Assembly (NCBI RefSeq): GCF_057098645.1
Contig: NZ_CM169472.1
Direction: 5' to 3' (one strand)
Length of the DNA stretch: 64,000 nucleotides
The stretch's first letter is position 1. Each line of letters starts with the position of its first letter. The notes under the pieces are model-generated. The model was not told the DNA's origin. It ran no database searches and saw only the letters and a list, made by a program, of their open reading frames with translations. Below are positions 15,940-16,310 of this stretch, in pieces. Made by a program: the position numbers and the translations under genes.

Positions 15940-16310
15940 GGAAGGGGTGGATAGCCGTTTTTATTCACCTTTTCTGTGGATAGAGTTGTGAAGAACTACG
16001 GAATTACTACGGGAAAACCCGGAGCATTCTGAATAAGCCCGATATAGACATTTTAAAATATTCATTATCAGTCAATGCATTACATGTAATTTAAGTAATG
16101 AAAAAGAGTAATTCGTGACCCAGGTCACACCTCTCATTTACGGGTTGGCGAAAGATCAACCAATGCCGTATTTATCCACAGAATGTGCCACTAAGTTAAG
16201 CACTGAACCACTAAAAACTGGAGTTTCGTCGCACGTCAAGGCTGTAAATGGAAACAGTAGTGGAGGTTTTTCACAGTTATCCCAGCTTTCTGTGGATAAC
16301 ATGGTGTAAG
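15940..16310. promoter_or_regulatory. DARS2-like DnaA-reactivating region (cluster of DnaA boxes in the rppH-mutH intergenic region)
   Basis: Perfect DnaA 9-mers TTATCCACA at 16172-16180 and TGTGGATAA at 16291-16299; three near-consensus boxes clustered near 15946-15983; DARS2 is described in the literature in this intergenic region. Confidence 0.5.
16163..16309 (+). CDS. ygdT: Small protein YgdT-like, 48 aa (MPYLSTECATKLSTEPLK...)
   Basis: Track ORF 16115..16309; 48-aa version from internal ATG at 16163; position between rppH and mutH; overlaps DnaA boxes so coding status is uncertain. Confidence 0.45.
   Translation: MPYLSTECATKLSTEPLKTGVSSHVKAVNGNSSGGFSQLSQLSVDNMV

Follow-up and report, generated by a model that had tools for sequence, protein, structure and literature searches.

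The intergenic region between rppH and mutH in E. coli raises a simple question: does its cluster of DnaA boxes constitute a DnaA-reactivating sequence, or does it belong to the hypothetical gene that is annotated there? The DNA analysed is a 64,000-nt stretch (the window), in which rppH (15255-15803, - strand) and mutH (16488-17177, + strand) flank an interval of 684 bp (15804-16487). An initial annotation, which put the length of this interval at 680 bp, had called the cluster DARS2-like from its location and had warned that the region is easily labelled as nothing more than a hypothetical gene. RefSeq does list ygdT, a 48-codon open reading frame (ORF; 16156-16302, - strand), as the sole feature in the interval and has no DARS2 entry. 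The ORF, which had initially been described as overlapping two of the boxes, contains both of the perfect DnaA boxes described below. Fujimitsu 2009 is the founding paper on DARS2.

The interval is 100% identical to that of E. coli O145 RM9872 and is found in 5424 of 5426 complete E. coli genomes. Its counterpart in MG1655 is 2968978-2969661, and a window coordinate equals the NC_000913.3 coordinate minus 2953174. Where annotations show only the hypothetical ygdT, genome scans and deletion designs may miss a near-universal replication-control element of this species.

Identity of the element between rppH and mutH

The clustering of DnaA boxes in this interval is far above chance. With the relaxed consensus TTWTNCACA, 455 bp hold three perfect matches and eight matches with at most one mismatch. 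First-order Markov simulations of 455 bp (n=5000) give means of 0.08 and 1.5 for these two classes, and none of the 5000 reaches the observed counts. When a 455-bp frame is slid along the 64 kb, the observed counts are reached only in positions overlapping the DARS2 locus. The two perfect 9-mers TTATCCACA that had been pointed out at 16172-16180 (+) and 16291-16299 (-) are the only perfect ones in the entire 64 kb.

Published primers and oligonucleotides tie the cluster to a known element. The primers MutH-4 and MutH-2, which amplify 'full-length DARS2 (455 bp)' (Kasho 2014, PMC4245941 Table S1), match exactly at 15938-15956 and 16374-16392. Their product in the window is 455 bp long and places full-length DARS2 at 15938-16392. 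All published primers and oligonucleotides match exactly except traIL-U, which is one base off at 16093. This spacer position, between the IHF site IBS2 and the Fis site FBS1, carries A instead of T and is the sole change relative to the DARS2 segment of K-12 W3110 (454/455 identical, 99.8%). Comparison with the published core, which had been proposed as a check, gives the same result: the deltaCore primers MutH-14/15 omit exactly 15961-15995 (35 bp). The minimal, deltaRight form of DARS2 ends at 16170 when its primer is mapped onto the window. The location upstream of mutH is the one stated for DARS2 (PMC11317965).

Because the defining primers and oligonucleotides match, the core geometry and the location upstream of mutH agree, the sequence is shared with K-12, the element is conserved, and the IHF and Fis sites are in place, the region between rppH and mutH is almost certainly DARS2 itself, the main chromosomal DnaA-reactivating sequence of E. 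coli, and would work by the published mechanism; no observation speaks against this identification. Since the published primers map here, 'DARS2-like' can give way to DARS2 proper. As in the K-12 element (Kasho 2014; Miyoshi 2021; Kasho 2025), the flanking genes are rppH and mutH, and boxes I-VI, IBS1-2 and FBS1-6 occupy their published relative positions. Unlike the K-12 element, the allele comes from a different E. coli strain and carries the single spacer substitution. DARS2 at this locus is already known and heavily studied, and the finding is correct, not new.

Conservation across species

A scan for RppH, with one genome per species, yielded 80 loci. In all of these mutH is adjacent and divergent, except in Morganellaceae-type genera and in one truncated contig. 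The window and 50 Enterobacterales loci, whose intergenic lengths range from 672 to 712 bp, were combined in an alignment of 51 sequences. Identities given below are mean identities to the window in this alignment, for which the regional mean is 0.59.

Wherever mutH is adjacent in Enterobacterales, the 35-bp core keeps its sequence, spacing and orientation and lies 154-172 bp from the rppH start; the one exception is a divergent metagenome assembly. The core is also present, within the same distance range, in 18 of 19 Vibrionaceae loci. Its non-consensus features are preserved. Across 49 other Enterobacterales species and the Vibrionaceae, the sequence, order and spacing of the core, box V and box VI are maintained. 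The boxes are conserved in related genomes and published DARS2 coordinates do not map elsewhere, the two points on which the initial annotation could have failed. The spacing of boxes V and VI is 119 bp in the window, and 119-120 bp in those Vibrionaceae that have both perfect boxes.

No core was found at loci from the RppH scan where mutH is not adjacent to rppH. In nine loci from Photorhabdus, Providencia, Morganella and Arsenophonus, mutH is located away from rppH and there is no DARS2 core upstream of rppH. The reduced-genome symbiont Candidatus Photodesmus has an intergenic region of about 180 bp from which the core is gone. A conjugation-derived E. coli (NZ_CP084026.1) carries an IS4-like element, ISVsa5, inside DARS2 at the equivalent of about 16068, near IBS1-2. 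This insertion splits the core from the Fis sites and would be a natural DARS2 knockout; the element is intact in the apparent parent, NZ_CP034595.1. Matches to DARS2 in records filed as plasmids were rejected as evidence of plasmid-borne copies, since these records are chromosome-sized or chromosome-derived.

Arrangement of DnaA, IHF and Fis sites

The core (15961-15995) reads TTATTCACC-TTTTC-TGTGGATAG-AGT-TGTGAAGAA, which corresponds to box I (+), 5 bp, box II (-), 3 bp and box III (-). In published DARS2, boxes I and II are likewise opposed and 5 bp apart, and boxes II and III point in the same direction (PMC6868365). Box I (TTATTCACC, 15961-15969, +; mean identity 0.92) has one mismatch to TTWTNCACA, forms the first 9 bp of the deltaCore deletion and faces box II head-to-head across the 5-bp gap. 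Box II (CTATCCACA, 15975-15983, -; mean identity 0.95) also has one mismatch and belongs to the 'double DnaA box' gTTCTTCACAactCTATCCACAg that is reported at a DnaA ChIP-seq peak (PMC11317965). Box III (TTCTTCACA, 15987-15995, -; mean identity 0.93) forms the last 9 bp of the deletion and has an unusual C at position 3 that is retained in nearly all species.

Three near-consensus boxes had initially been placed between about 15946 and 15983. All three exist, and two of them are boxes I and II. The remaining 9-mer, CTATCCACC at 15946-15954 (-), has two mismatches and a mean identity of 0.31, lies outside the published core and is probably not functional. It differs from box III and is kept in the inactive deltaCore construct. 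The initial choice of core boxes had also omitted boxes III and IV; the true core consists of boxes I, II and III. Box IV (TTATTCAGA, 16028-16036, -) lies in the 16028-16037 segment bracketed by the substitution primers Ksh-30/31, has a mean identity of 0.44 and is reported as dispensable (PMC4245941).

Two further DnaA-box-like 9-mers are found just left of the published DARS2 boundary at 15938 and are absent from published constructs. One, TTATAAACA (15929-15937, +), has an identity of 0.99 in the Enterobacterales alignment and takes the consensus form TTATNCACA in several Vibrio species. The other, TAACTCACA (15907-15915; identity 0.92), lies 13 bp from it.

The IHF sites IBS1 (16054-16066, +) and IBS2 (16070-16082, -) are 3 bp apart and together match the published 29-bp traIBS segment exactly (16054-16082). 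In a consensus scan, which predicts binding, they are the sole matches to TAANNNNTTGATW with at most one mismatch within the intergenic region, and a PciI site adjoins them. Their mean identity is 0.54-0.55, and the TCA...TTA positions of IBS2 are kept across species. The Fis site FBS1 (GAGTAATTCGTGACC, 16106-16120; mean identity 0.35) is bracketed by substitution primers and lies within the match to oligonucleotide FIS-1U (16098-16128). It is the region's sole perfect match to the Fis consensus GNNYANNNNNTRNNC. A scan for IHF and Fis sites had been suggested together with the core comparison, and its consensus matches coincide with the published positions of IBS1-2 and FBS1.

The 21-mer GAAAGATCAACCAATGCCGTA (16150-16170; mean identity 0.69) carries FBS2-3 and is delimited by the primer ends of MutH-17 (16149) and MutH-11 (16170). 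It is reported to be essential to DARS2 activation (PMC4245941). A conserved GATC at 16154 lies within it, and the sequence AAAGATC is retained as far as Vibrionaceae. In many Vibrionaceae loci the homologue of 16140-16165 has two GATC sequences about 11 bp apart (AGATCGGTCAAAGATC) at the equivalent of FBS2-3. Such spacing of paired GATC sequences is typical of SeqA targets; E. coli has one conserved GATC there and another at 16310.

Box V (perfect TTATCCACA, 16172-16180, +) is located by substitution primers and by the 52-bp FBS2-5 oligonucleotide of Miyoshi 2021 (PMC8682772), which includes the box and matches 16142-16193 exactly. Its identity is 1.00 in the 51 sequences, and most Vibrionaceae have it at the corresponding position. 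Box VI (TGTGGATAA, 16291-16299, -) is also perfect, is bracketed by primers Ksh-34/35 and has an identity of 1.00. FBS6 (16348-16362; mean identity 0.33), bracketed by primers Ksh-9/10, is reported as dispensable in published DARS2 work. Box IV, FBS1 and FBS6 are all poorly conserved.

Additional perfect matches to the relaxed consensus occur at 16267-16275 (TTTTTCACA, +; identity 0.55) and 16418-16426 (TTTTCCACA, -; identity 0.39), and no mention of either was found in the DARS2 literature examined. In other Enterobacteriaceae, CTATCCACA or TGTCCACA is instead located between the predicted -35 and -10 elements of mutH.

Predicted mechanism and DnaA occupancy

The mechanism of DARS2 has been worked out for the K-12 sequence (PMC4245941, PMC6868365, PMC8682772, PMC11724364), and the window allele, with 454 of 455 positions identical, would be expected to act in the same manner. 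ADP-DnaA would bind boxes I-III of the core, where head-to-head protomers on the opposed boxes I and II would release ADP and box III would stabilize the oligomer. The resulting apo-DnaA would depart and rebind ATP, such that ATP-DnaA rises before initiation. The core is expected to be nearly inactive alone. IHF bound at IBS1-2 would bend the DNA and thereby bring Fis at FBS2-3 into contact with DnaA on the core. Once ATP-DnaA levels are high, an oligomer extending from box V over adjacent weak boxes would displace Fis and turn DARS2 off. Box V is described as the seed of this Fis-evicting ATP-DnaA oligomer, which provides negative feedback (PMC8682772).

DnaA ChIP-seq peaks have been reported at 2969124, 2969306 and 2969501 (PMC11317965), which map to 15950, 16132 and 16327 in the window under NC_000913.3 numbering. 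Table 1 of that study states NC_000913.2 numbering; the peaks fall on DARS2 only when read as NC_000913.3 coordinates and are otherwise about 2 kb away. For the strongest of these DARS2 peaks the study gives a 'double box', tCTTACACCAtgTTATCCACAg, which is the right-hand pair of the box VI triad described below (PMC11317965). Coverage is 199 and 213 near boxes V and VI, equal to that at oriC and datA, and 78 at the core (PMC11317965).

This occupancy profile could indicate that boxes V and VI are mainly a titration sink for DnaA, like datA, instead of parts of a reactivating element. The invariance of both boxes across two bacterial orders is compatible with such a role. However, box V has a demonstrated function in Fis eviction (PMC8682772), two sites make a small sink, and titration leaves the fixed 119-120 bp spacing and the conserved flanks of the boxes unexplained. 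We consider it improbable that titration is their main purpose, and retain the reading of the locus as a reactivating element.

Mean identity is 0.92-0.95 for boxes I-III, and it reaches its maximum at boxes V and VI. The right half of DARS2 (16171-16392) has a mean identity of 0.66 and 43 invariant columns, versus 0.53 and 29 for the minimal left half. The right half is reported to be dispensable for over-initiation from plasmids (PMC4245941). Thus, the more conserved half is the one that plasmid assays report as dispensable, and the published mechanism leaves part of the constraint unexplained. The most strongly selected part of DARS2 is a part outside published functional assignments, and it holds a LexA-type box that is tied to mutH in other genera.

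The ygdT open reading frame

One explanation for this constraint would be that a genuine small protein, YgdT, drives conservation, in which case the DnaA boxes would only happen to lie within its coding sequence. The RefSeq annotation of virtually every E. coli genome includes ygdT, and AGGA is located 9 nt upstream of its ATG. However, the frame is intact in only 3 of the 51 aligned sequences, all of them Escherichia. In the remaining 48 it is interrupted by internal stops or lacks a start codon, and the 147-bp length is nevertheless kept in 44 of the 51. The invariant nucleotide blocks within the ORF lack third-position variation and coincide with DNA motifs. The conserved 'peptide' segments LST, FTALT and SVDK simply arise from in-frame reading of box VI, the LexA-like box and box V.

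Because the conserved pieces are DNA motifs and length is kept without frame, the pattern in ygdT is that of spaced DNA sites and not that of a gene. A search of the literature on ygdT found nothing useful. The candidacy of ygdT as a coding gene was rejected, as its frame is not maintained outside Escherichia. On the basis of these alignments ygdT is most likely not a gene, only a chance ORF over the right half of DARS2, and the prospect that a real protein underlies the conservation is very slight.

Conserved blocks in the right half

Two blocks account for the conservation of the right half. The first (16234-16260) surrounds a palindrome that resembles the LexA (SOS) box, and the second (16277-16325) surrounds box VI. 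The putative LexA box, GGCTGTAAATGGAAACAGTA (16240-16259), has the form CTGT-N8-ACAG, and the palindrome proper is CTGTAAATGGAAACAG (16242-16257). In Enterobacterales its CTG and CAG never vary, and changes fall in its centre. By an approximate matrix derived from E. coli LexA sites, it scores 11.8 bits and ranks second of about 64,000 20-mers in the window. This score is marginal by the same approximate matrix, whose training sites score 12.6-26.4 bits with a leave-one-out minimum of 7.3. In Photobacterium the equivalent box scores 12-22 bits with the approximate matrix, up to the level of a strong SOS box.

The distance between the LexA-like box and box VI is nearly fixed. Of 47 Enterobacterales loci with a located box VI, 45 have a distance of 50-52 bp, nearly always 51 bp, as does the window; in 18 Vibrionaceae it is 50-53 bp. 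Sequence variation in the palindrome is confined to the central N8.

The LexA-like box ends 228 bp before the mutH ATG. In Salmonella, the single SOS box of mutH is listed at 228 bp from the ATG, with an HI of 12.99 and 3.58-fold induction by nalidixic acid (PMC8072944 Table 1). In V. parahaemolyticus, a mutH probe bound LexA in an electrophoretic mobility shift assay (EMSA; PMC3323433), and this probe aligns to the same position as 16240-16259. The SOS boxes of both species are positionally homologous to the window site. They differ in that the Salmonella and V. parahaemolyticus papers treat the site as a mutH operator, with DARS2 unmentioned, and in that the E. coli site is putative. No link between LexA and DARS2 was found in the literature searched, and a literature search for LexA ChIP at E. 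coli mutH gave nothing useful.

The second block carries a set of boxes that resembles a DARS core. It reads TTATCCCAG-CTTTC-TGTGGATAA-CA-TGGTGTAAG, followed by a conserved GATC and ATCCTGTTTATT. The triad (16277-16310) thus consists of TTATCCCAG (16277-16285, +; identity 0.88), a 5-bp gap, box VI (-; identity 1.00), a 2-bp gap and TGGTGTAAG (16302-16310, -; identity 0.85). Of all sequences in the 64 kb, the triad most resembles the 35-mer DARS1 core, with 25 of 35 positions shared versus 24 of 35 for the accepted DARS2 core. The GATC (16310-16313; identity 0.97) adjoins a conserved tail, ATCCTGTTTATTTTC (16311-16325; mean identity 0.86).

Ordinary transcription factor binding might be all that these sites are for. 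In this case DnaA, together with LexA, would regulate the mutH and rppH promoters as it acts at nrdA or dnaA, and nucleotide exchange would be incidental. Box VI with its weak neighbour forms a 'double DnaA box' of the kind typical of DnaA-regulated promoters (PMC11317965), and the conserved LexA-type box lies 31 bp upstream of box VI. Salmonella mutH is induced 3.6-fold by nalidixic acid (PMC8072944), and DARS1 likewise resides within the LexA- and DnaA-regulated promoter region of uvrB. However, in published reconstitution ADP is released in a manner dependent on the core, IBS1-2 and FBS2-3, and ATP-DnaA is lowered in chromosomal mutants (PMC4245941). Furthermore, scanning and manual inspection of both strands revealed no convincing sigma-70 promoter near the LexA-like box or box VI; the sole predicted promoter is at 16428-16455. 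Transcription factor binding is therefore an unlikely account of the whole locus. Promoter regulation fits as an extra role of the right half, not as a replacement of DARS2 function.

A structured RNA, either a small RNA or a mutH leader, could also produce strong nucleotide-level conservation outside any conserved ORF. A search of 15000-17500 on both strands against Rfam (E<=1) matched nothing in the intergenic region, and its single weak hit lies inside mutH. RNAalifold, applied to 16200-16335 from 25 species, gives one invariant 6-bp hairpin of -3.5 kcal/mol with no covariation. There is little reason to expect that the conserved right half encodes such an RNA. A terminator-like hairpin with a T-run before mutH (16445-16470), which overlaps the predicted mutH -10, was also rejected: single-sequence folds from 50 species give it a median of -4.8 kcal/mol and z-scores near zero.

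The right half, comprising the box VI triad and the LexA-type box, is probably a separately constrained module within DARS2 that controls mutH transcription, acts as a strong DnaA-binding site, or does both. A more specific proposal is that about 16230-16325 forms a composite operator, in which the LexA box and the DARS1-like triad would make mutH expression, and possibly DARS2 activity, responsive to SOS and to DnaA occupancy. We offer this only tentatively, as the less likely outcome. If it is true, DARS1 would be mirrored and both DnaA-reactivating sequences would be wired to DNA-damage signalling. If LexA binds the site in E. coli, a single control region would be common to initiator recharging, mismatch repair and the SOS response.

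Relationship to DARS1 and datA

DARS1, in the bioD-uvrB intergenic region, has the same core geometry as DARS2: box I, 5 bp, an opposed box II, 3 bp and box III. Both elements are located upstream of a DNA-repair gene whose upstream region has a LexA-type box. Unlike DARS2, DARS1 is only 101 bp long and has no need for IHF or Fis.

Like DARS2, the datA locus is a cluster of DnaA boxes outside coding sequence, has an IHF site and alters the nucleotide state of DnaA; its ChIP-seq occupancy is also similar. datA promotes ATP hydrolysis on ATP-DnaA by means of head-to-tail oligomers, whereas DARS2 uses a head-to-head pair to release ADP and also needs Fis.

The rppH side of the intergenic region

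On the rppH side, the - strand segment 15839-15867 has invariant TTTACC and TGA-AACAAT blocks that are separated by a 17-bp spacer of constant length and variable sequence. From this pattern, the segment looks like the core promoter of rppH, with a predicted -35 and an extended -10, and the predicted 5' UTR would be about 30-45 nt long.

The 3' end of rppH (15264-15300, -) contains a perfect tandem duplication of 18 bp, in 2.1 copies, that adds SAYRRK to the C-terminus of RppH. The protein is 182 aa here versus 176 aa in K-12 and O145 RM9872. The duplication appears to be rare: all 11 full-length matches among 12 sampled E. coli genomes span 68 bp, versus 86 bp in the window.
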